From a virus, in the IMG/VR virus record IMGVR_UViG_3300033998_000166, positions 1-34,701 of that record: a stretch of 34,701 nucleotides of DNA; one strand, written 5' to 3'. Shown one piece after another: positions 7,842-18,113 of the stretch (position 1 is its first letter; every line of letters begins with the position of its first letter). Below the pieces are notes generated by a model. It was not told the origin of the DNA. It ran no database searches and saw nothing but the letters and a program-made list of their open reading frames with translations. Made by a program: the position numbers and the translations under genes.

Positions 7842-7870
7842 TTGAAAAATATCGGGAATATTGATATTAT
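7842..7870 (+). promoter_or_regulatory. Rightward early promoter
   Basis: TTGAAA, 17-nt spacer, TATTAT. Its reverse complement matches 7732-7760 at 25 of 29 positions. Confidence 0.6.
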
Positions 7871-7892
7871 TGGAATCGAAGGAGGGGAGGAA

Positions 7893-8135
7893 ATGAGGGG
7901 GAAAATCGGGGAAATGGTCGAAAATGCGCCATGGAATAAAAAAATTGCCGTGCTACGCATCTTGAAAGGGTGGACGCAGGAAGAAGCAGCAGAAAAATGT
8001 GGCACGGACCAGAGGATTTATTGGAACTGGGAAAACGGCATTTCATACCCCAGGACCATTAGCCGACGCGCCATTGCAAGGGCATTCGGCGTGCCGGTCG
8101 AGGAAATATTCGGAAGGGGTGAAAAGGTTGGCTAA
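7893..8135 (+). CDS. Cro-like XRE-family HTH regulator
   Basis: ATG follows GGAGGGGAGG. HTH segment WTQEEAAEKCGTDQRIYWNWENG. Confidence 0.75.
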   Translation: MRGKIGEMVENAPWNKKIAVLRILKGWTQEEAAEKCGTDQRIYWNWENGISYPRTISRRAIARAFGVPVEEIFGRGEKVG

Positions 8136-8391
8136 AACCTGCTACGACCCCAGAAACGCTGCATACCGCATCGAGGATATGCCGTTTCTTCTTACAGTTT
8201 CGGAAACGGCAAAAATCCTGCGGTGCGGCAAAAACAAAGTATATGAACTTGCAAAGACGGAAAAAGATTTCCCAGCCATCCGGTTATCAGGGGCTATCAG
8301 AATACAGAGAGATGGTCTGATACGGTGGCTGGAAAGAAGAGTGAAAGGAGGGGGAAATGATGCTGAGGCTATCGAGAGAAACCGAAGATAA
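8128..8391 (+). CDS. Excisionase-type (HTH_17) DNA-binding protein; start uncertain (8128 TTG or 8179 ATG)
   Basis: The segment LLTVSETAKILRCGKNKVYELAKTEKDFPAIRLSGAIRIQRDGLIRWLE fits the Xis/AlpA-type winged helix. The N-terminal part of ORF-track 7999..8391 overlaps the cro-like gene. Confidence 0.6.
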   Translation: MAKTCYDPRNAAYRIEDMPFLLTVSETAKILRCGKNKVYELAKTEKDFPAIRLSGAIRIQRDGLIRWLERRVKGGGNDAEAIERNRR

Positions 8392-8527
8392 GGTCCAGAG
8401 ATTCCTGGACGCCACCACCGCCTTGGTATGGACCAAGGTAATGTGGAATATTTGTGCAATGCTGGGTTACGGCTTACTTGCATGGCTGATTATTGGTTTG
8501 TTTGAGCAATTGCAAGCACTTATATGA
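8357..8527 (+). CDS. Small membrane protein (56 aa; below the ORF-track cutoff)
   Basis: ATG follows AAAGGAGGGGG. Hand translation gives MMLRLSRETEDKVQRFLDATTALVWTKVMWNICAMLGYGLLAWLIIGLFEQLQALI, which contains one TM helix. Confidence 0.5.
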   Translation: MMLRLSRETEDKVQRFLDATTALVWTKVMWNICAMLGYGLLAWLIIGLFEQLQALI

Positions 8528-8543
8528 GAAGGGGGTGAAAGAG

Positions 8544-8702
8544 GTGGAACGACTATTTACTATTACATGCAAACCCCAAGAAATAAAGAAAAAGCTCCGC
8601 CAGATAAAGCAGGAGCTTATAAGGGAAAATGTTATTCGATTTCAGTATAACACAAATCGGGAGGCAAGAAAAGATGATAAAGGCTATTTATATATGCGAT
8701 AG
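8544..8702 (+). CDS. Small hypothetical protein; weak call
   Basis: In-frame GTG inside ORF-track 8493..8702, after AGAAGGGGG. It overlaps its neighbours. Confidence 0.3.
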   Translation: MERLFTITCKPQEIKKKLRQIKQELIRENVIRFQYNTNREARKDDKGYLYMR

Positions 8703-8946
8703 GTGCAAAAGTGAAGCCGCTTTAACATTTAAAAATGCATTTTCATTTAGGTACCCAGAAGGATGGCATTTTATCACAACTAAAATTATGGGAACAAAAG
8801 TGGAAGCGGAATACTTCTTGTGCCCGGATTGTTGCAACAAATTAGGGCTAAATGAACCAATTATCCAAGAAGAAGATAAAAAATCTGTCGCCGATAGACT
8901 AATTGAATGCATCGAAGAAATTGTCGAATCGCTCATGGAGGGTTAG
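8674..8946 (+). CDS. Hypothetical zinc-ribbon-like protein (CxxC...CxxC)
   Basis: ATG 8674 follows GGGAGG. The protein has CDRC near the N-terminus and CPDCC later. Confidence 0.6.
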   Translation: MIKAIYICDRCKSEAALTFKNAFSFRYPEGWHFITTKIMGTKVEAEYFLCPDCCNKLGLNEPIIQEEDKKSVADRLIECIEEIVESLMEG

Positions 8947-8948
8947 AA

Positions 8949-10646
8949 GTGATAGAAGTATTCCGGCGGCCAATATTTAGCAAGCCGCAAATTCGAATAC
9001 AAAACAACCAAATATACCTGAAATGCGACTTCGCAGACAAGGATAAGGCGAAAGAGATACCAGGATATCGCTGGGACCGGGAGCAAAAATGCTGGGTGTA
9101 TCCGCTGTCACTTGAAGTCTACAAACAAATATGTGAGCACTTCCCCGACGTGGAGGCCGACAATGTGACAAATGCAATTCTGAACGATATGATAGCCCGA
9201 GCACATTATGTTACAAAGGCGAAGCTGGCAGGATGGGAGAAAGTAGAGCCGCTTAAACCGATGCCAGTTAAGGTCAAGCCATTCCGCCACCAAATCCTTG
9301 GCTACAATATAGGCATTACCCTTCCTAATGTTGCCCTCCTTATGGAAATGGGGACCGGCAAGAGTCTTACCGCCCTAGCAATAGCCGGCAGGCGATACCT
9401 AGACGGACAAATCAAAAAACTTCTCATTGTATGCCCTACCAGTATTATGTTCGTCTGGCACGACGAATTCGAGAAATTCGCAAACTTCCCGTATTCACTG
9501 CTGGTGCTCGATGGTCCGGTCCAGAAACGAATCGAGCGGCTCCAGGAATTTAAGGGGGAAGGCCTCCAGGTTGCCGTCATAAACTACGAATCGGTGTGGC
9601 GCATGGAGGATGAGCTCCGTAGGTGGGAGCCGGACATGATTATTTCCGATGAATCCCAACGCATCAAGACACCTTCGGCCCAACAGTCCAAAGCCATGCA
9701 CCGCCTGGGCAAAATCGCAAAATACCGCATGATTCTTACGGGGACACCGGTCACCCAGGGGCCGCTAGACTTCTTCTCACAATACAAATTCCTGGACCCG
9801 ACCATCTTCGGCAACAGTTTTTACGCCTTTAGAGCCAGATACGCCGTTATGGGCGGCTATGAAAACCGGCAGGTGGTCCGGTATCAGAACCTGCCGGAGT
9901 TGATAGAGAAGGCCCACAGTATAGCTTTCCGCGTCACGAAAGCCGAAGCGCTGGACCTGCCGGAGCAGATAGACCAAATTCGCTATTGCGAACTGGAGCC
10001 CAAAGCCACGAGAATATACGAGCAGATGCGGCGGGAATGCATCGCGGAGCTCGAAAACGAGAAGGTCGTCACGGCAGCGAACGTGCTCTCAAAGCTGCTC
10101 CGGCTCCAGCAAATTACCGGCGGGTTCCTGGGGGACGGCGAGGGTGGCGTCCAGAAGGTAAGCAACGCCAAGCTGGATGTTCTTCGGGAGATTCTGGAGG
10201 ACATCGTTATCGACAACGGAAAAAAGGTCGTCATTTTTGCCCGGTTTCGGCCGGAGATAGCGGCCATCGAAAAATTGTTAACAGATATGGCACTGCACTA
10301 CGGCACAATTACAGGCGATACGCCGATGAAGGAAAGAGGGGAAAAGGTCCACGCATTCCAGACCGGAGCAAGTATAAATGTATTCGTGGCACAGCTCCAA
10401 ACGGCGGGGCTCGGGATAACACTCTCGGCAGCAGATACGGCGGTGTTCTACAGCCTGGATTTCAGCTTCGCAAACTACGACCAGGCCAGAGCAAGATTAC
10501 ATCGTATCGGCCAAAAAAACAACGTCACAAATATTCACATTATCGCTAAAGGAACAGTGGATGAAAAAGTTATGAAAGCCCTGGCGAAGAAGAAGAACCT
10601 GGCGGACCTGGTGGTGGATGGGTGGAGGCAGGTGTTTGAACCATGA
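8949..10646 (+). CDS. SNF2-family helicase
   Basis: GTG follows GGAGGG. Walker A is MGTGKSL. Motif II is DESQRIK. Other motifs: LTGTPVTQGPLDFFSQYKFLDP and the C-terminal QARARLHRIGQ. Confidence 0.9.
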   Translation: MIEVFRRPIFSKPQIRIQNNQIYLKCDFADKDKAKEIPGYRWDREQKCWVYPLSLEVYKQICEHFPDVEADNVTNAILNDMIARAHYVTKAKLAGWEKVEPLKPMPVKVKPFRHQILGYNIGITLPNVALLMEMGTGKSLTALAIAGRRYLDGQIKKLLIVCPTSIMFVWHDEFEKFANFPYSLLVLDGPVQKRIERLQEFKGEGLQVAVINYESVWRMEDELRRWEPDMIISDESQRIKTPSAQQSKAMHRLGKIAKYRMILTGTPVTQGPLDFFSQYKFLDPTIFGNSFYAFRARYAVMGGYENRQVVRYQNLPELIEKAHSIAFRVTKAEALDLPEQIDQIRYCELEPKATRIYEQMRRECIAELENEKVVTAANVLSKLLRLQQITGGFLGDGEGGVQKVSNAKLDVLREILEDIVIDNGKKVVIFARFRPEIAAIEKLLTDMALHYGTITGDTPMKERGEKVHAFQTGASINVFVAQLQTAGLGITLSAADTAVFYSLDFSFANYDQARARLHRIGQKNNVTNIHIIAKGTVDEKVMKALAKKKNLADLVVDGWRQVFEP

Positions 10647-10807
10647 ACATATCCAGGGAGCAGATGCTCCATTTCGTGAGCGAAATGGAAGATATTGCAC
10701 TGATGGCTCTTGAGGGGAAGGTCACAAAGCAAGCCCTCGAGGCTCAATTCAGAATCATCCGCGAGAATATCGAAAGGTGGGAGGAATTTGCAGGAGACAA
10801 TATTTGA
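10643..10807 (+). CDS. Small hypothetical protein (54 aa; below the ORF-track cutoff)
   Basis: ATGA overlap with the SNF2 stop codon. Hand translation gives MNISREQMLHFVSEMEDIALMALEGKVTKQALEAQFRIIRENIERWEEFAGDNI. Confidence 0.45.
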   Translation: MNISREQMLHFVSEMEDIALMALEGKVTKQALEAQFRIIRENIERWEEFAGDNI

Positions 10808-11198
10808 ACTCGCAGCGAAATTGAAAACGCTGCGGGAAGAAAAGAAAGAGATGGAGGAACGGCTTAAAGCCATTGAATCAGAAATCGAAGAAACGGAAAA
10901 CCAGTTATCCCAGGAAATGGTTAACGCCGAAATTCAAAACTTCAACAAAGACGGAACAACCTTCTACCTGCAAATCAAGACCTATGCTAGCATAAAACCC
11001 GAATTTAAACAGCAAGTCTACGACTGGCTCAAGGCCAACGGATTCGAATCCTTAGTCTACGAGACGGTCAACGCTCAAAGATTTTCAGCTTTCATTAAGG
11101 AGCTCCTGGAGGAAGTAGATGAACTTCCCAGCGAGCTCAAAGATAAAGTCAACGTTTTTGAAAAAATTACTGTCGGCATGAGGAAGGCCGGCAAATAA
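10788..11198 (+). CDS. Coiled-coil protein resembling siphovirus Gp157 family
   Basis: TTG follows GGTGGGAGG. There is an N-terminal heptad-rich segment, and the C-terminal part reads ETVNAQRFSAFIKELLEE. The family assignment is from memory only. Confidence 0.5.
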   Translation: MQETIFELAAKLKTLREEKKEMEERLKAIESEIEETENQLSQEMVNAEIQNFNKDGTTFYLQIKTYASIKPEFKQQVYDWLKANGFESLVYETVNAQRFSAFIKELLEEVDELPSELKDKVNVFEKITVGMRKAGK

Positions 11199-11219
11199 AA
11201 AAGACAGGAGGATGAGCTT

Positions 11220-11957
11220 ATGGCGAACGAACTTGCGGTCATTAATGATTTTCAATTCCCCGCAGTAGAAGGCATGGGGTCCATATTTCAGGAAGAAATG
11301 CAGGGGTTATCTTTCACCTTCGACCGCGTAAAAATTCCAAGCGGTGGCGGGTTGGCTTTCGAGGTCCCTGGCGATGATGAAGAAAATCCGGATATGGTAA
11401 AGGAAATTGTCGGCGTCATTGTAGACCATTACCCCGTGAACGCTTACTGGCAGGACAAATACGCAGGGCAGAACAATCCGCCGAACTGCGCCAGCATGGA
11501 CGGCGTAAAGGGCGTTGACAGGGACACGGGCGAAGTCCGGACCTGCAATTCCTGCCCCTATAACGCATTCGGCACGGCCGAGGACGGCCGGGGTAAGGCC
11601 TGCAAGAACATGCACCGAATATACATCCTGCGTAACGGCGAGTTGTTTCCCCTGCTGCTTACCCTGCCGCCGACATCGCTCAAGAATTTTGCAAACTACC
11701 TGGCGAAGCGGGTTCTTGGCCGTGGCAAGAAAAGCCACGAAGTTGTCACAAAGATTAGTCTCAAGAAAGCTACATCAAGCCAGGGCATTGCATATTCCCA
11801 GGCGGCGTTCTCGCTGGTGGGTGTATTACCCCCGGAGGTCGCTGAAAAGATGAAAGTATATGCCGAACAGATACGGCCATTTACTAGGAACTTGCAGATT
11901 ACGCAGGACGAGGCTATCGAGGCCGAAGCCGCGTCCGGGGGAAATCTCCCGTTTTAA
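11220..11957 (+). CDS. Hypothetical Cys-containing protein of the replication/recombination module
   Basis: RBS is AGGAGG. Motifs seen: VKIPSGGGLAFEV, PPNCASMDG, CNSCPYNAFG, GKACKN. No family was confidently recognised. Confidence 0.7.
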   Translation: MANELAVINDFQFPAVEGMGSIFQEEMQGLSFTFDRVKIPSGGGLAFEVPGDDEENPDMVKEIVGVIVDHYPVNAYWQDKYAGQNNPPNCASMDGVKGVDRDTGEVRTCNSCPYNAFGTAEDGRGKACKNMHRIYILRNGELFPLLLTLPPTSLKNFANYLAKRVLGRGKKSHEVVTKISLKKATSSQGIAYSQAAFSLVGVLPPEVAEKMKVYAEQIRPFTRNLQITQDEAIEAEAASGGNLPF

Positions 11958-12014
11958 TCCAGAGCGGGCCGGTTCGGCCCGCTCTCACAAAAATACGGAG
12001 GAGGCTAAAGAAAA

Positions 12015-12761
12015 ATGATTAGAACTGCAAAATACAACGTCGAGATAGAATTTATCGAGCCGATACTCGGTTCCTTGCCGGCGGACCCGGCGGTCTATAC
12101 GAATTATATTGCATCCAAGGCGCCCTCAACATGGCAGCACGACGAAGAAGTAGAGCTTGCCGATGCCAGGGCGGACGAGATGAATTTGGATAAAGGAATT
12201 ACCGTATTCGCAAGGGATGAAAAGGGCTTATTCCTCTACAACTATCACGTCAAAGGCTTTCTTAAGGAAGTTGCAAACATGCTCAAAGATAATTTCGGCA
12301 TACCGAACTTACGCTCTAAGATAGATTATTACGTATACGTGCAGCCCAGGCGCATTTATCTTACTCGGCCCAACGGCAGAATCATACAGGAAGAAGATGA
12401 AATTTTCGAACGCCCGCTCCGTGCAAAGACGGCACAAGGAGAACGCGTCGCACTTGCGGCCTCGGAACGCATTAATCCGCCGTGCAAAATACAATTCACG
12501 CTGGAAATTGTGGAAAATTCAGCGGGAATTACGTGGGAGCTACTGCAGGAAATATGCAAATTCGGCCGCCTGAAAGGATTAGGCCAATGGCGGAACGGTG
12601 GCTGGGGGCAATTCGAACTAAAAACCTTTGAACTCGCACCCGGCTCAAAGCACCTGGAACCGATAGAGAAAGTATCGGGCAATAAAAAGAAAGCCGAAGA
12701 AAGTGAAGGCGAAGAAAAGAAGCGCAGGGGCCGCAAGAAGAAAGAAGAAAGTGCGGCCTAA
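12015..12761 (+). CDS. Hypothetical protein with RAMP-like signatures and a K/E/R-rich tail
   Basis: RBS is GGAGGAGG. The segment GLGQWRNGGWG (aa 188-198; nt 12576-12608) fits the RAMP glycine-rich loop pattern GhGxxxxxGhG. Also present are IEPILGSLP, YHVKGFLKE and the C-terminal tail KKKAEESEGEEKKRRGRKKKEESAA. Confidence 0.75.
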   Translation: MIRTAKYNVEIEFIEPILGSLPADPAVYTNYIASKAPSTWQHDEEVELADARADEMNLDKGITVFARDEKGLFLYNYHVKGFLKEVANMLKDNFGIPNLRSKIDYYVYVQPRRIYLTRPNGRIIQEEDEIFERPLRAKTAQGERVALAASERINPPCKIQFTLEIVENSAGITWELLQEICKFGRLKGLGQWRNGGWGQFELKTFELAPGSKHLEPIEKVSGNKKKAEESEGEEKKRRGRKKKEESAA

Positions 12762-12893
12762 CAAAGGCGAGGTAAAGTGGAGTGATGCTAAGGTAATGCA
12801 AAGCCTGGCATTGTAACAGCAAAGTAAGGCGCTGCTAAGTTTAGGAACGGCAAGGCGATGCTTTGTGATAGGAAAGTAAAGCATTGCACCGCC

Positions 12894-13000
12894 CTCCGCA
12901 GCGGTTAAGCATCGTTCGGCATAGCAACGGCGCTGCGGAGTCAAGTCAAGCAGGGGTAATGCAATCCGCCGTTCGGCAAAAGCAGAGCCCTGCTGACTTG
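12894..13000 (+). other. Two abutting long hairpins
   Basis: First stem: CTCCGCAGCG (12894-12903) pairs with CGCTGCGGAG (12931-12940). Second stem: CAAGTCAAGCAGGG (12942-12955) pairs with CCCTGCTGACTTG (12988-13000), giving 13 bp and one bulged A. Both loops contain CGTTCGGCA. Confidence 0.6.
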
Positions 13001-13447
13001 GCAATGGCATCGCGTTGTTCAGCTACGGCTTTGAATGGTGGGGCAAAAGCAAAAGCCTGCATAGCACGGCAAAGGCACGACATGGCATGGCAGTGTTATG
13101 CAATGGTGCGGTGCTGCGATGCAAAGGCGGAGCTAGACACGGCGAGGTTGTGGTGATGTTCAGTGATGCATAGGTATGGCAGGGTAAAGCGAGGGCGTCG
13201 TTCTGCGATGCATAGTGGAGCATAGGAAAGGCAAGCCGTAGCAAGGCCAAGGAGGAGCATTGCTCAACGATGCAGAGCAGGGTAGGGGCTGAGCGGAGCT
13301 GAGCAAAGCGATACGATGCAGCAGTTAGGCTAGGCAGGGCGATGCTGAGGCTGAGCGAGGCAACGTAACGGTACTGTTTAGTATTGTTTAGCAAGGTGCT
13401 GCATAGCATCGCGGCGTTGCGTAAGTTTTGCATAAGTTTTGCAAGTA

Positions 13448-13546
13448 AGCATAGGTATTGCGTGGTCTTGTATGGTATAGCATAGGCACAGCGTAGTCTT
13501 GTATGGTATAGCATAGGCACAGCGTAGTCTTGTATGGTATAGCATG
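13448..13546. repeat. 31-bp tandem repeat, about 3 copies
   Basis: The unit GTCTTGTATGGTATAGCATAGGCACAGCGTA is exact at 13465-13495 and 13496-13526. A partial third copy runs from 13527, and a degenerate copy lies upstream from 13448. Confidence 0.9.
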
Positions 13547-13882
13547 GGCTTTGCCTTGCCTCGCAAGGTGAAGCATGGGCAGTGCATCGTAGAGTAATGC
13601 ATCGGCTGAGCCTCGCGCAGCAGGGGTGTAGCAGTGAGCGGTAGGGGCACCGCTAGGGAAAGTAACGCAACGGCTATGCGAAAGCAAAGCTGCGCGTTAC
13701 GATGCACCGGCGGCGTACTGTCAGGCAAAGGTAACGCTTTTGTATTGTGACGTTTTGCAACGGCTTTGCTTGGCAAAACAAAGGCGATGCCGAGCCCCAC
13801 ATATCACAGGCAAAACAATAGCCAGTAGGCGAGCCAGCCCTGTCTCCCTTGAGCGATTCTTGGTGAGGGAGAGTGATATTAA

Positions 13883-14050
13883 GTGGAAAGAAAAACATGT
13901 CCACTTACCATGCTCAGCGGGATAGAACGTCATGACTATGTACTACTTTATTGCCGTGAAGAGAAATGTGCATGGTGGGATGAAAAATCTAAAAAATGTG
14001 CGTTCGTATCAATTGCTAGTATCGCAAGAATTATAGGGAATACAATATAG
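13883..14050 (+). CDS. Small 4-Cys protein (55 aa; below the ORF-track cutoff)
   Basis: GTG lies 9 nt after GAGGGAGAG. Hand translation gives MERKTCPLTMLSGIERHDYVLLYCREEKCAWWDEKSKKCAFVSIASIARIIGNTI. The alternative start is ATG 13910. Confidence 0.5.
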   Translation: MERKTCPLTMLSGIERHDYVLLYCREEKCAWWDEKSKKCAFVSIASIARIIGNTI

Positions 14051-14098
14051 AGCTGCTCCGACCGCAAGTCCAGCAATGCACGGCGGGGCGGTAAATGC

Positions 14099-14172
14099 AC
14101 GGGAGTAGTCTAAGGGTAGGACACAGGACTTTGGCTCCTGTAGTGCAGGTTCGAATCCTGCCTCCCGTGCCA
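14099..14172 (+). tRNA. tRNA-Gln (anticodon UUG), CCA encoded
   Basis: Hand-folded 74-nt cloverleaf. Acceptor stem ACGGGAG/CTCCCGT. D stem GTCT/GGAC. Anticodon stem CAGGA/TCCTG with loop CTTTGGC. T arm GCAGG-TTCGAAT-CCTGC. Discriminator G, then CCA. Confidence 0.85.
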
Positions 14173-14197
14173 CAACTCAAAGGAGGTGAATAAGCAA

Positions 14198-14428
14198 ATG
14201 ATTGATATGTCAATCATCAAAGATGTCCTCTTCGAAAAAAAGTCTGTCGTAGTAACGAATAGAACAAGTATTGACTGCAAAGTGAATATCGAGAGCGGGT
14301 ATATTGAATTAATACCAGAGCCTATTGTTGTAAATTTCATGGATATTGATTCAATCGAACTTAAAAGCAATGGGATTATAAAAATAACGTTTACAGATTC
14401 GAGGGTTTTAGGATTAATTGTCGAATAG
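14198..14428 (+). CDS. Hypothetical protein (76 aa), AT-rich gene
   Basis: ATG 14198 lies 9 nt after AGGAGGTG. The ORF-track GTG 14186 lies inside the RBS. Confidence 0.6.
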   Translation: MIDMSIIKDVLFEKKSVVVTNRTSIDCKVNIESGYIELIPEPIVVNFMDIDSIELKSNGIIKITFTDSRVLGLIVE

Positions 14429-14432
14429 AGGC

Positions 14433-14455
14433 GGGGCGGGCCACCCCGGCCTGCC
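14433..14455. repeat. GC-rich motif GGGCGG(G)C(C/T)ACCCCGGCCTGCC, copy 1
   Basis: It starts 5 nt after the stop of 14198..14428. A near-identical copy lies at 14636-14658. Confidence 0.7.
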
Positions 14456-14479
14456 TTACTTGAAACGGAGGTAGTTGTC

Positions 14480-14620
14480 ATGAAGGGAAAAGGAAAAAAG
14501 AAACGCACGTGCTGTATTTGCGGCACGAAGCTCCAGAATTCCGAAAAAAGTATATGTGCAGACTGTTTCGAAAGATGGGTAAGGGCATTTGTGGCAGACT
14601 ATATAGCTCGGCAGAGATAA
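14480..14620 (+). CDS. Small zinc-ribbon-like protein (46 aa; below the ORF-track cutoff)
   Basis: ATG follows ACGGAGGT. Hand translation gives MKGKGKKKRTCCICGTKLQNSEKSICADCFERWVRAFVADYIARQR. Confidence 0.5.
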   Translation: MKGKGKKKRTCCICGTKLQNSEKSICADCFERWVRAFVADYIARQR

Positions 14621-14635
14621 AGTTAGCAACCTTAA

Positions 14636-14658
14636 ACGGGCGGCTACCCCGGCCTGCC
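14636..14658. repeat. GC-rich motif, copy 2
   Basis: ACGGGCGGCTACCCCGGCCTGCC, located 16 nt after the stop of 14480..14620. Confidence 0.7.
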
Positions 14659-14723
14659 CTGCTAACATATTAAAAAGAACATCATTAAATTGGAGCGAAT
14701 CAGCTTTGCAATGCGGCACTGAT

Positions 14724-14750
14724 GGGCGAACCAACATCCCTGGTTCGCCC
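14724..14750 (+). promoter_or_regulatory. Perfect 9-bp hairpin upstream of the primase-helicase gene
   Basis: GGGCGAACC, a 9-nt loop, then GGTTCGCCC. There is no T-tract. It lies 30 nt before the start codon. Confidence 0.4.
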
Positions 14751-14779
14751 GCATCCCCTTGCTTAAAAGGAGGCCTAAC

Positions 14780-17308
14780 ATGGCTACAATCGACAGACTA
14801 GGCTTAGACAACCGAATAGACTACAGAGAATTCTACCGTCAGCGGTTGCGGAATTTTAAAGATAAAGGCGACGAGCTCGTCGCCGACTGCCCTTTCCATA
14901 ATGATACAAAACAGCATTTCTATATCAACGCCAAGACCGGACAATATCATTGTAAGGTCTGCAACGAAGCTGGCAACGCTCAAACCTTCCTCGAAAAGAC
15001 CGAACACCTCACCCCCCAGGAAGCCTACCAGAAACTGCTCAAAATCGCCGGAATTGAGCCGAAAAGCACGCAGAAAAAACCGAAAGTAGACTATTTTTCG
15101 CAATATGCTGAAATGAAGAAACTACCGAAGGATTTTCTTCAATCTTTGGGCATCAAGAACGCCAATATCGGAATCTCTATTCCCTACATGGACGAAGCCG
15201 GCGTCGTAGTAGCAACGAAGAAAAGGCGTATCTCCGATGGTTCAGGGCCACGATTTACTTGGAACCGGGGAGCGAAACTACTCCCCTACGGTCTTTGGCG
15301 GCTGAAAGAAATTCGAGAAGCCGGCTACTGCATCCTGGTGGAAGGTGAGAGCGATTCACAAACGCTTTGGTATCACGGCTTCCAGGCACTGGGTATCCCA
15401 GGAGCAGGGAGCTTCAAAAACGAGTGGGTGGACTACATCCGGGACGTGCCGAAAATATACATCCACCAGGAGCCGGGCGAGGGTGGGGAGGCGTTCCTAA
15501 AACAAATATGCGGCAAGCTCCTGGACGAAGGCTACCGGGGCAAGGTGTATGTGATACATACCCCGGGCTACAAGGACCCTTCCGACCTGCACGTCGCCGA
15601 CCCGAACGGGTTCAAAGCAACGTGGCAGAAGGTCCTCGAATCGGCCAGAGAGCTCAATCTTGCAGACTTCGAACCGAGGCCCGAGGAAATCATACCAAAC
15701 GCACCGATACGCCTCCGCCTGCCGGTTGGCTGGATTGTGAACGAAAACGGCGTATACAAGCAGGAAAAGGACGGCCTGCTCCTCGTCTGTCCCGTTCCGA
15801 TACTCATCACGAAGCGGCTTCGAAATATAGATACGGGCAATGAAAAAATTGAAATTCACTTCCGGCGCGACAACCAGGACCACTACATCCGCGCCAACCG
15901 GAGCACGGTTTTTCAGAACCGGACCATCACGCAGCTCGCGGACCGCGGCCTGCCGGTGACGAGCGAGAACGCCAAGAAATTAGTTAAATACCTCGGCGAC
16001 CTCGAGGCAGAAAACATGAAGCTCATACCGGTCCAGCGGTCTACGGAGCAGATGGGATGGGTGAGTTCAAGCATCTTCATCCCGGGTGCCGACGGCGATG
16101 TTGTCCTGGATGTGGACGAAGGTTCGGCGTACATCGCGGCGGCATATCACCCGGAGGGCAGCCCCGACGAATGGAAAAATGCAGCCGTGCAGGCCAGGGC
16201 AATATCGCCGATTGCCAGATTCGTATTGGCGGCAAGTTTCGCCGCACCGCTTTTATCCATCCTGAACCAGCGCGTGTTCGTGGTCCACTGCTGGGGGCCG
16301 AGCCGCGGTGGAAAGACGGCAGCGATAAAGCTGGCCCTGAGCGTTTGGGGCAACCCCGAAACACTGCTCATGAACTTCAACGCCACAAAGGTTGCTCTGG
16401 AGCGGTTGGCGTCATTCTTTAACGACCTGCCCCTGGGAATAGACGAAAAACAGGTTGCCGGTGATAAACAGGGATTCGTGGAGGGGCTGATATATCTTCT
16501 CGGTTTGGGCAAAGGCCGGGCAAGAGGCACGAAAACGGGCTGGCTGCAGCAGTTCAAATATTGGCGAACCATAGCTCTTACCAGCGGCGAAGAACCGATT
16601 TCAACGGCCTCTAGTCACACCGGCATAATTACAAGAACACTGGAACTCCGGGGGCAGCCCATACCTGACGAAAGATTCGCCGCGAAACTGCACGACATCG
16701 TAGTTGAACATTACGGCCACGCAGGGCCGGTATTCATCCGTAAATTAATCGAATTTATCAAGGACAACCCTGAGGACATAAAGGCATTGTATGAATCTAT
16801 CCTGGAACACCTCGATGTATACGGCGCAGGCAAGCTCGGTTCGCACAAAGCGGCGGTCGCGACGGTGTGTGTGGGCGACATTTTATCGAGCATGTGGATT
16901 TTCGGGCATGAACCGGCGATAGCAAAAAGCGAGGCAATGGAACTGGCCGAATTCATCCTGGACTCCCTGCAGGATTACGAAGAAGCCGACTACGCTGAAC
17001 GAGCGAAGGAATGGCTCGATTCCTGGATAGCGCAGCACTGGGCGAATTTCGGCGACGACGCCAAGGAGCGGTTCGGCTGGGTGAAGCCGGATGGCATTGC
17101 GATACTACCGTCGGCACTGGAACCAGCGATGAAGAAGGAGGGCTTTTCACCCACGAGGGTATATTCGGACTTCGCGGAGAGGGGGTGGATTCTTGGAGGG
17201 GACGGCAGGCACATCAAACGGAAGATACAAATCGAAAACAAGCAGTATAGAGTAATATTCTACACGGGGCTCGACAGGGATGATGACGAGGAAGAAATAC
17301 CTTTCTGA
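14780..17308 (+). CDS. Bifunctional primase-helicase (CHC2-type zinc finger, Toprim, P-loop NTPase; DUF927/D5-like)
   Basis: ATG follows AAAGGAGG. Zinc motif CPFHNDTKQHF...YHCKVC. Toprim segment ILVEGESDSQTL. Walker A GPSRGGKT. Walker B-like LPLGIDEKQ. Confidence 0.85.
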   Translation: MATIDRLGLDNRIDYREFYRQRLRNFKDKGDELVADCPFHNDTKQHFYINAKTGQYHCKVCNEAGNAQTFLEKTEHLTPQEAYQKLLKIAGIEPKSTQKKPKVDYFSQYAEMKKLPKDFLQSLGIKNANIGISIPYMDEAGVVVATKKRRISDGSGPRFTWNRGAKLLPYGLWRLKEIREAGYCILVEGESDSQTLWYHGFQALGIPGAGSFKNEWVDYIRDVPKIYIHQEPGEGGEAFLKQICGKLLDEGYRGKVYVIHTPGYKDPSDLHVADPNGFKATWQKVLESARELNLADFEPRPEEIIPNAPIRLRLPVGWIVNENGVYKQEKDGLLLVCPVPILITKRLRNIDTGNEKIEIHFRRDNQDHYIRANRSTVFQNRTITQLADRGLPVTSENAKKLVKYLGDLEAENMKLIPVQRSTEQMGWVSSSIFIPGADGDVVLDVDEGSAYIAAAYHPEGSPDEWKNAAVQARAISPIARFVLAASFAAPLLSILNQRVFVVHCWGPSRGGKTAAIKLALSVWGNPETLLMNFNATKVALERLASFFNDLPLGIDEKQVAGDKQGFVEGLIYLLGLGKGRARGTKTGWLQQFKYWRTIALTSGEEPISTASSHTGIITRTLELRGQPIPDERFAAKLHDIVVEHYGHAGPVFIRKLIEFIKDNPEDIKALYESILEHLDVYGAGKLGSHKAAVATVCVGDILSSMWIFGHEPAIAKSEAMELAEFILDSLQDYEEADYAERAKEWLDSWIAQHWANFGDDAKERFGWVKPDGIAILPSALEPAMKKEGFSPTRVYSDFAERGWILGGDGRHIKRKIQIENKQYRVIFYTGLDRDDDEEEIPF

Positions 17309-17309
17309 A

Positions 17310-17639
17310 AATTCTGTATGTGGGAAGTGTGGGAAGTGTGGGAAGCCTTGTGGGAAGCCTTCAAACCCGCATGGCGCCTAATATAGAAAGTATACTTCCC
17401 ACACTTCCCACAAGAAAGTATACTTCCTTTACAACTTGCGCACACAAAAATTTAGTACCTCCCCAGGCGATATAAAAATTTTTGTACCGAAAAAATAGAT
17501 ATATATTTTCGCAGGTATGTGGGAAGCCTAAAAACCCCTAGTAAAATCAAGGCTTCGAGGCCATTTTCGGCTTCCCACACGATGTGGGAAGCCTTAAAAA
17601 TATCGTAAATAATGATACAAAAATGGGAAGTGATATATC
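17310..17639. other. Iteron-type origin of replication (putative)
   Basis: TGTGGGAAG occurs directly at 17319, 17328, 17337, 17349, 17518 and 17583. It occurs inverted (CTTCCCACA) at 17395, 17404 and 17571. There is a partial copy at 17623. AGAAAGTATACTTCC occurs twice. AT-rich tracts lie at 17445-17510. Confidence 0.7.
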
Positions 17640-18113
17640 GTGAATTACGATAAATTTAAAGACCCCTACGCCCTTGAACAGGATGTGCGTGAAAAACAAA
17701 AATGGGAAGCCCTATTCAAAATCACCACCAAGCTCTACCCAAATAACACTGAGCTTCTAGAGGCGCTGCATGCGGTCCGCATGGCCGGAGCGGTGCTGAA
17801 AAAAGAAAAGAACGGCTACGTCATACGACCAATTATCGATTACTGGGGAGAACGCTCGCTGTTCAAGACGGTTGAGGTTTACGAAAAGTGGAAGGATACG
17901 TACCTCATGCCGTTCAAGGAGCAAATCATTAAAGTTATGCAGGCATTCACGATTGCCCAGGAATACGAAAAACTGGCCGCTCAATTCGTGGGCAAAACCA
18001 TCAGGACCCCCGAAGGAGAGGGGGAAGTTCTTGGGGTGGAGCTTCACGAATTCATTGTAAAGATTAACGGCGAAGAAAAACACTTCGCCATCCAGGAATG
18101 CGAGCCATTTTAA
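17640..18113 (+). CDS. Hypothetical protein (157 aa)
   Basis: ORF-track entry with a GTG start. Codon usage looks normal. No motif was recognised. Confidence 0.65.
   Translation: MNYDKFKDPYALEQDVREKQKWEALFKITTKLYPNNTELLEALHAVRMAGAVLKKEKNGYVIRPIIDYWGERSLFKTVEVYEKWKDTYLMPFKEQIIKVMQAFTIAQEYEKLAAQFVGKTIRTPEGEGEVLGVELHEFIVKINGEEKHFAIQECEPF

Follow-up and report, generated by a model that had tools for sequence, protein, structure and literature searches.

The locus described here lies in a 34,701-nucleotide (nt) stretch of viral DNA, positions 1 to 34,701 of the IMG/VR record IMGVR_UViG_3300033998_000166, which is referred to below as the window. A gene for a small RAMP protein, vipr, is joined at its downstream end to a kilobase of short tandem units, the putative vrRNA array, which has a tRNA gene as its neighbour (Table 1). 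A preliminary description of the window, made from the sequence alone, had singled out positions 12762-13882 as a region devoid of open reading frames (ORFs) that might specify a large structured non-coding RNA or serve, at the DNA level, as an array of binding sites. Related loci are designated by labels (L001, L002, etc.).

Both parts of the locus have counterparts in the VIPR (Viral Interference Programmable Repeat) systems described in two 2026 preprints (bioRxiv 10.64898/2026.04.26.720920, 10.64898/2026.04.26.720927). In these, a VIPR system is presented as a phage-encoded minimal RAMP protein (Vipr) together with vrRNAs consisting of 9-16 YNNGG repeats. The GGY of each repeat is held by Vipr and the NN dinucleotides pair with double-stranded DNA, every third base of the target being skipped; the outcome is the transcriptional silencing of competing phages. 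Variant repeat consensuses (NNNGG, YNNNG, and NNNNG) and tail-less "staggered" arrays are mentioned in the first preprint (10.64898/2026.04.26.720920).

Table 1 Coordinates of vipr, the array, and their associated features in the window
Feature	Position	Strand	Remarks
vipr gene	12015-12761	+	248-aa minimal Cas7-like RAMP; ends where the array begins
vrRNA array (putative)	12751-13798	+	Tandem G-Y-N-N-N units, about 202 in number (5 nt: 152; 6 nt: 44; 4 nt: 6)
26-nt blocks	12762-12891	+	Five consecutive blocks, each of four 5-nt units and one 6-nt unit; clearest super-period
Perfect 10-bp hairpin, arms CTCCGCAGCG / CGCTGCGGAG	12894-12940 (12894-12903 with 12931-12940)	+	Inside the array
Longest run free of register shifts	13365-13425	+	One 6-nt and ten 5-nt units; test guide for target searches
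31-nt modules	13448-13604	+	Five modules; a 6-nt unit GCAT(A/G)G heads five 5-nt units in each
7-bp hairpin, TCTCCCT / AGGGAGA, 16-nt loop	13843-13872	+	About 45 nt past the last unit; without a T-run; read from the sequence
tRNA-Gln (UUG)	14099-14172	+	Neighbour of the array

Anatomy of the pentamer array

The dominant signal in the region is a period of about 5.2 nt, which had been overlooked in the preliminary description. Base identity amounts to 0.42 at a lag of 5 as against approximately 0.22 at the adjacent lags, and additional peaks are seen at lags of 10/11, 16, 21, 26, and 31. A dynamic-programming parser that chains units anchored on a G followed by a pyrimidine placed 202 units on the plus strand. 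The chain score of the array interval was 261 on the plus strand and 52 on the minus strand; among 1.1-kb background windows, the best one without overlap with the array scored 16, the median over all windows being 7.

The G and the pyrimidine are fixed in 92 % of the array units. Among the 5-nt units taken alone, 94 % begin with G and 94 % have C or T as the second base, and positions 3, 4, and 5 are near-maximally variable, with an entropy of 1.8-1.9 bits. The 6-nt units follow the consensus G-C-A-W-N-G and carry a G as the sixth base in 31 of the 44 cases. Such a unit recurs every four to six units, producing blocks of 21, 26, and 31 nt, and this interspersion accounts for the mean period of 5.2 nt. 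In the 26-nt blocks the 6-nt units start at positions 12787, 12813, 12839, 12865, and 12886. The 31-nt modules harbor the sole strong tandem repeat of the window (13448-13549, period of 31 nt, 3.3 copies), modules 2 and 3 being identical and module 1 nearly so.

The array starts within the final codons of vipr, and no site resembling a terminator was found between the two. Promoter and terminator scans of the locus performed no better than scans of shuffled sequences, and no recurring tail or leader was found within the array of the window. The hairpin at 12894-12940 could be a local separator or a processing element. The one at 13843-13872 may mark the 3' end or a processing site of the array transcript, or may coincide in part with the ribosome-binding site of the small ORF that follows; a hairpin-forming element is present at the equivalent position in L001 and L003.

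The compositional peculiarities listed in the preliminary description were recovered. G exceeds C in the region 12762-13882 (370 versus 226), and a recount of 13141-13320 gave exactly the base numbers on which the claim of a G-over-C skew had been founded (G71 C30 A48 T31). The words CGATGC, GCATCG, and GCATAG were likewise recounted at the 8, 5, and (about) 9 copies previously given; RGTAANGC is abundant, as had been stated, but occurs 8 times instead of about 10. All ORFs on the plus strand of 12762-13882 are 90 aa or shorter, its three frames having 24, 17, and 23 stops in 373 codons, whereas only 10, 9, and 3 stops occur in the three frames of the minus strand. These numbers (17-24 versus 3-10 per frame) agree with the view that the plus strand is free of genes and that the minus strand is spuriously open, the latter by accident of base composition. 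The hairpins and tandem repeats said to be embedded in the region also exist, in the form of the 31-nt repeat and a few hairpins of 8-10 bp.

The excess of CGATGC needs to be seen in the light of the unit structure. Eight copies are present; the expectation is 0.25 for shuffled mononucleotides, 5.4 after permutation of the unit order, and 1.6 after permutation of the variable columns. As shuffles that preserve the units remove most of the excess, it is mostly a by-product of unit composition; the motif enrichment that had been put forward for comparison with shuffled controls thus holds above mononucleotide chance and is mostly gone once the unit structure is kept. CGATGC originates where a GCGAT or ACGAT unit is followed by GC, and GCATAG is the commonest 6-nt unit. 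The excess of "GAT" units is genuine yet secondary; these are often located directly ahead of a 6-nt unit.

The Vipr protein

Vipr of the window did not match any Pfam or PHROG family. Its AF2 model (pLDDT of 88.4) displays an RRM β-α-β-β-α-β core with a thumb β-hairpin at approximately residues 129-153, and the top structural matches obtained with this model in Foldseek are Csm3 and type VII Cas7 (E 3e-7 to 1e-5). The G-loop reads G188-L-G-Q191-W192-R193-N-G (G188-LGQWRNGGWG). The Vipr family is large, with 587 matches, and consists mostly of proteins of 200 aa; its invariant motifs include G-L-G-Q-W-R-N-G-x-G-x-F near the C-terminus. The family profile matches type VII Cas7 (E 0.0016) and the G-loops of Csm4.

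Using hmmsearch, the family profile was aligned with PDB chain 36pp_D, the "SUSP1 Vipr protein" (E 0.026; residues 29-201 of the profile with 29-190 of the chain). An hhalign comparison of the family with the SUSP1 Vipr sequence from the phage record gave an E of 4.5e-5 with a probability of 69 % over 175 columns. Vipr of the window is thus homologous to SUSP1 Vipr, by a match that is weak but extends over the full length. In the structure of the SUSP1 complex, H17 and D177 read G1, R138 and W178 hold G2, and R179 is among the residues that hold Y3 (10.64898/2026.04.26.720920). SUSP1 W178 and R179 align with W192 and R193, which are conserved in the family of the window; H17 and D177 align with S20 and Q191. 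Judged from this alignment, the absence of the first G from the repeat would fit the replacement of both residues that read G1.

Residues 205-248 of the protein (12627-12761) form a K/E-rich C-terminal extension of some 45 residues that is predicted to be helical from 224 to 247. It is present in Vipr of the window and in its two closest relatives and is missing from the rest of the family, the members of which are about 200 aa long. In L001, the vipr reading frame continues into the array sequence.

Pairing of vipr and array in related loci

The association between gene and array was analyzed in 88 loci: the window, the seven loci obtained first, and 80 that the family alignment retrieved from IMG/VR. 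An array was called at a score of at least 30 on the vipr strand. In 83 of the 88, an array is present on this strand. It is located directly downstream of vipr in about 38 loci and directly upstream in about 24, and it was scored as overlapping the gene boundary in about 20. Most of 25 additional loci from GTDB genomes, the Vipr proteins of which are 34-51 % identical to that of the window, also have a pentamer array; going by genome hits, the hosts of the clade are mainly anaerobic Bacillota. A G-rich pentamer tract immediately follows the gene in the closest relatives (Vipr 76-83 % identical) and in an unrelated phage with a 59 %-identical protein. The array sequences of these loci are unrelated to each other although the type of unit is shared. 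The punctuation by longer units is a family-wide trait: in most arrays 17-25 % of the units are of 6 nt; these have a modal spacing of five units, and 83 % of them carry G as the sixth base.

A blastn search of the array region against 50,697 phage records gave no match, and IMG/VR searches with a single Vipr or primase protein yielded no close relatives; the family alignment succeeded. The same phage, with identical sequence, occurs in two other samples, and both contigs (L088 and L089) end inside the array; JGI 3300033999 and SRR10854627 are samples that contain the phage.

Between related arrays, the G is changed at 1.6 % of the sites and the pyrimidine at 5.1 %, 73 % of the latter changes being C<->T, and positions 3, 4, and 5 are changed at 8.6, 7.7, and 8.5 % (the pairs compared for these figures are not independent). 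This conservation is the combination of a scaffold and variable positions that has been described for vrRNAs (10.64898/2026.04.26.720920), as a guide-RNA scaffold would be expected to show. A single indel of 52 nt, or ten units, distinguishes L001 from L002. L001 and L003 have the first ~95 nt and the last ~50 nt of the array in common, the middle having been exchanged. In the close relatives, with Vipr proteins that are 76-83 % identical, the frame is kept and most of the array has been replaced.

Several of the related loci show further peculiarities. Assemblies break within the array, L088 ending at window position 13494 and L089 at 12926, and gene callers put spurious minus-strand genes of up to 248 aa in arrays (L001:6359-7105; L088:4009-4479). 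A second pentamer array is located 1.6-3.2 kb away from vipr in L010 (6267-6487), L030 (7612-7831), L049 (7847-8156), L082 (3250-4349), and L086 (7164-7839); vrRNA genes would therefore not invariably reside beside the protein gene. Contig JAGCAN010000001.1 of an Oscillospiraceae metagenome-assembled genome contains two loci, L110 (22469-29074) and L111 (70362-76967), that are alike in tblastn match, array score, and coordinates, a likeness that is based on these values and not on a direct comparison of the sequences. The array in a Thermodesulfobacteriota genome (L098:3603-5220) comprises 314 units in 1.6 kb.

Comparison with known systems

The parser was validated on Escherichia phage SUSP1, in which it recovers all four known vrRNAs, one upstream and three downstream. 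All units of these arrays have a G at the fifth position, and a leader and a structured tail accompany every vrRNA. The unit of the window, G-Y-N-N-N, is the "YNNNG" consensus in another register. A VIPR locus is recognized by at least four pentamer units beside vipr in which a conserved GGY alternates with a hypervariable NN; the window has 202 units in a variant form, the first G not being conserved. The locus is also minimal and viral, no Cas family being detected among the ORFs scanned (7842 to 18113). The discrete vrRNAs of 9-16 units with an invariant structured tail by which type II (SUSP1-like) systems are defined are absent.

With the type II systems of SUSP1 and of a Pseudomonas fulva prophage, the locus shares a Cas7-like Vipr core of about 200 aa with a G-loop containing G-x-W-R, pentamer RNA genes that flank vipr on the same strand and combine a conserved G-Y with hypervariable positions in between, and a phage origin without cas genes or a CRISPR array. 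The differences are equally clear. The repeat of SUSP1 is GGTNN with a fixed first G, whereas this G is free in the window (position 5 is G in 26 % of the units). SUSP1 has discrete vrRNAs of about 100 nt and 9-16 units, each with a leader and a pseudoknot tail, whereas the window has a continuous array of about 200 units spanning 1 kb, in which tails and leaders are missing and a 6-nt unit is inserted every four to six units. No vap gene was recognized in the window. Compared to the SUSP1 protein, Vipr of the window has S and Q in place of the G1-reading H17 and D177, and at 248 aa, it includes the C-terminal extension. A tail-less array with a register shift of +1 nt every few units does fit the legend to fig. 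S18 of the preprint, in which "staggered arrays" are made up of vrRNAs that overlap by 1 nt, and we infer from this legend that the two architectures may be identical. The family-wide punctuation by 6-nt units is not mentioned in the main text or the figure legends of the preprint.

The best structural matches, Csm3 of type III-A and Cas7 of type VII, share with Vipr the G-rich loop and a thumb that breaks the guide at a fixed period. Unlike class 1 CRISPR systems, the locus has no other cas genes, no repeats, and no spacers, its period is 5 nt and not 6, and the guide is interleaved with the scaffold instead of contiguous. CRISPR-Cas was also considered as an identification of the locus itself and was ruled out, as there are no CRISPR-type direct repeats and no Cas families among the neighbours. 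The locus is very probably a new member of the recently described VIPR kind, and belongs to a variant clade with a scaffold made up of G-Y only and a tail-less array of kilobase length that is punctuated by 6-nt units.

Searches for targets

For the target searches the published rule was applied, in which the scaffold is replaced by one wildcard (1-nt skip). No self-target was found in the 34.7-kb window even when two mismatches were allowed in 20 read bases. In the window and the other 87 loci, with 1.4 Mb counted for both strands, no excess over reversed or shuffled guides was observed at skips of 0-3 and with two or three bases read per unit; the sole excess in this local search consisted of period-5 self-hits. 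Five IMG/VR scans with guides of ten units returned nothing, or one low-complexity hit in a giant-virus contig, and the 13365-13425 guide had no match in IMG/VR. A concatenated string of the NNN bases, representing a contiguous reading of three bases, gave nothing below E 0.2 in a BLAST search against phages. These searches are weak ones, with exact matching and guide boundaries that are not defined.

One match was obtained in a metagenome contig, Ga0179593_1790529 (L117:4690-4718, minus strand), where 22 of 22 bases agree over 11 units that span the 13365-13425 guide. An ATG with AGGAG ahead of it is in phase with the match, and the contig has 65 % GC and no credible genes. Roughly one chance hit is expected for 20 specified bases, a rough estimate, the size of the collection not being given. 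The match is uninterpretable and is to be regarded as a lead and not as a finding.

Interpretation of the locus

The locus is very probably a VIPR system of a temperate siphophage because a Cas7-like homologue of Vipr adjoins a strand-specific pentamer array and because this pairing holds throughout the family. The preliminary description had already suggested that a RAMP-like protein encoded upstream might bind the product of the region; this link is borne out by the homology of the protein to Vipr and by the presence of both partners in 83 of the 88 loci. By analogy with the experiments on SUSP1 and P. fulva, vipr and the array would be transcribed together, and Vipr protomers would coat the RNA, one per unit, with the conserved G-Y flipped out. 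The variable bases would then be presented for gapped pairing with the DNA duplex of a competing phage or mobile element, and binding of the Vipr-RNA complex would silence transcription of the targeted element.

A number of observations weigh against this interpretation. The similarity to SUSP1 Vipr is weak (hmmsearch E of 0.026, hhalign probability of 69 %). Discrete vrRNAs of ~100 nt and structured 3' tails, as known from the characterized type II systems, are lacking from the array, and no widely conserved vap accessory gene, a typical though not universal companion of vipr, was found among the neighbours of the 88 loci. Neither the local search nor the five IMG/VR scans, all under the 1-nt-skip rule, gave a convincing natural target. 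In addition, the locus and its clade are known from sequence, transcription and co-purification of the RNA being extrapolated from other systems.

The recognition code of the clade may, rather tentatively, differ from the published rule of GGY/NN with a skip of 1 nt, since only G-Y is fixed, the other three positions evolve equally fast, and the residues that read G1 are replaced. Moreover, the 6-nt unit restores a full GGY about once per five units, which is about once per turn of a Vipr filament of 5-6 protomers. A code in which three bases are read per unit would fit, as would cleavage of the array to give staggered guides that are very short (4-6 units) or a continuous filament of kilobase length with periodic correction of the register.

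A VIPR-type ribonucleoprotein might also be used by the phage for its own regulation (timing of early genes, replication, or the choice between lysis and lysogeny) or to silence host genes, and not in conflicts between phages. The position of the locus inside the early replication/recombination module, the divergent XRE-type repressor gene within about 2.5 kb of vipr in 21 related loci, and the lack of an external target in the IMG/VR scans are all compatible with such a role. Nevertheless, it seems improbable: the array has no self-match in the 34.7-kb window with up to two mismatches per 20 bases read, self-targeting is absent, according to the preprint, from the types analyzed (10.64898/2026.04.26.720920, Methods), and the fast turnover of the arrays between close relatives fits an arms race better than housekeeping. 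Much less likely still is a DNA-level array of protein-binding sites acting as a centromere, a secondary origin, or in nucleoid-like packaging, an option that the preliminary description had left open. With a mean period of 5.2 bp, or half a turn of the helix, sites would come to lie on its alternating faces, and the array is situated in the replication module and adjoins the primase-helicase gene. The signal is, however, strand-specific (261 on the plus against 52 on the minus strand) and shares its strand with the RAMP gene in most relatives, the sequence outside G-Y is not conserved at all, and the conservation is that of a guide-RNA scaffold. Furthermore, the partner protein has a predicted RNA-binding Cas7 fold and no DNA-binding domain, and candidate origin iterons are found elsewhere (17319-17412). 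The array could also be non-functional satellite-like DNA generated by replication slippage, or a mis-called gene on the minus strand, given its internal tandem duplications (31 nt, 3.3 copies), the breaks in assemblies, and the minus-strand ORFs placed by gene callers in related arrays. This, too, is very unlikely in view of the strong constraint on G and Y across proteins that are only 34-83 % identical; the 52-nt indel is not a multiple of 3, and the openness of the minus-strand frames follows from base composition.

The least probable of the alternatives is the large structured or multimerizing non-coding RNA of the GOLLD/ROOL type put forward in the preliminary description, with kissing interactions between CGAUGC and GCAUCG. 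The region does resemble such RNAs in being long, ORF-free, and carried by a phage near a tRNA gene, and it contains complementary hexamers. Two 150-nt windows that together cover 12837-13061 also fold clearly better than shuffled sequence (z of -2.6 and -3.3), the only part of the region to do so; the hairpin at 12894-12940 belongs to this part. Two local hairpins aside, the region folds only marginally better than its shuffles, the mean z being no lower than -1.2, as compared to -0.5 in coding control windows. In the window, only the tRNA reaches the gathering score of an Rfam model, and nothing relevant was obtained in 12600-14250 even at E<=10; eight related loci did not give a match either. 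Neither sequence nor structure is conserved between phages with Vipr proteins that are 76-83 % identical, the sequence being replaced wholesale. Pairing between CGAUGC and GCAUCG cannot be upheld as the organizing principle, the excess of these words being largely explained by unit composition, that is, by common units such as GCGAT followed by GC. The adjacency to a tRNA gene appears incidental: no tRNA was called in 9 of 11 related loci scanned, and the calls in the other two do not abut the array.

With the VIPR interpretation, the locus adds to a way of recognizing DNA by RNA guides that was reported only lately, is possibly older than CRISPR, and has so far been studied in depth for type II only. 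The window and about 100 relatives attest to a large clade that seems to have its centre in phages of anaerobic Bacillota and is characterized by a scaffold reduced to G-Y, arrays of up to 200-300 units, and a regular 6-nt punctuation. Its members offer test cases for the flexibility of the code, for the delimitation of vrRNAs without tails or ribozymes, and for the length of the Vipr filament. On the practical side, assemblies break at such arrays, and genes are falsely called on the strand opposite to them.

Genome context and neighbouring features

The window carries genes for an integrase, a cI-like repressor, a Cro-like protein, an SNF2 helicase, a primase-helicase, TerL, a portal protein, a capsid protein, and a tape-measure protein and is a temperate siphophage. 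The array locus is part of the early replication and recombination module; each ORF scanned between 7842 and 18113 is either a replication gene or without a match in Pfam and PHROG. The commonest neighbour in the 88 loci is the divergent gene for an XRE helix-turn-helix repressor mentioned above (21 of 88).

Just upstream of vipr, positions 11220-11957 encode a 245-aa protein (phrog_23155, no Pfam match) that is common to only five loci, L001-L003 included. The small Cys-containing ORFs that follow the array, at 13883-14050 in the window, differ in each relative. The products of 11220-11957 or 13883-14050 could be vap-like accessory proteins and are mere candidates for this role.

In L001 (6905-6960) and L003 (3590-3640), the two closest relatives, the array ends in a tRNA-Gln-like minihelix composed of the two acceptor strands (5' and 3'), with the T-arm between them, and CCA. 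This element is almost the same as the 3' half of the window's tRNA-Gln, and ARAGORN calls no tRNA at these positions. The minihelix looks like the remnant of a deletion; it could also attract RNase P or the CCA-adding enzyme to the 3' end of the array.

Three direct copies of TGTGGGAAG and two of its complement ACTTCCCAC lie at 17319-17412, immediately after the primase-helicase gene, and are candidates for origin iterons, in agreement with the iteron origin that had been placed outside the array, at 17310-17639, in the preliminary description.

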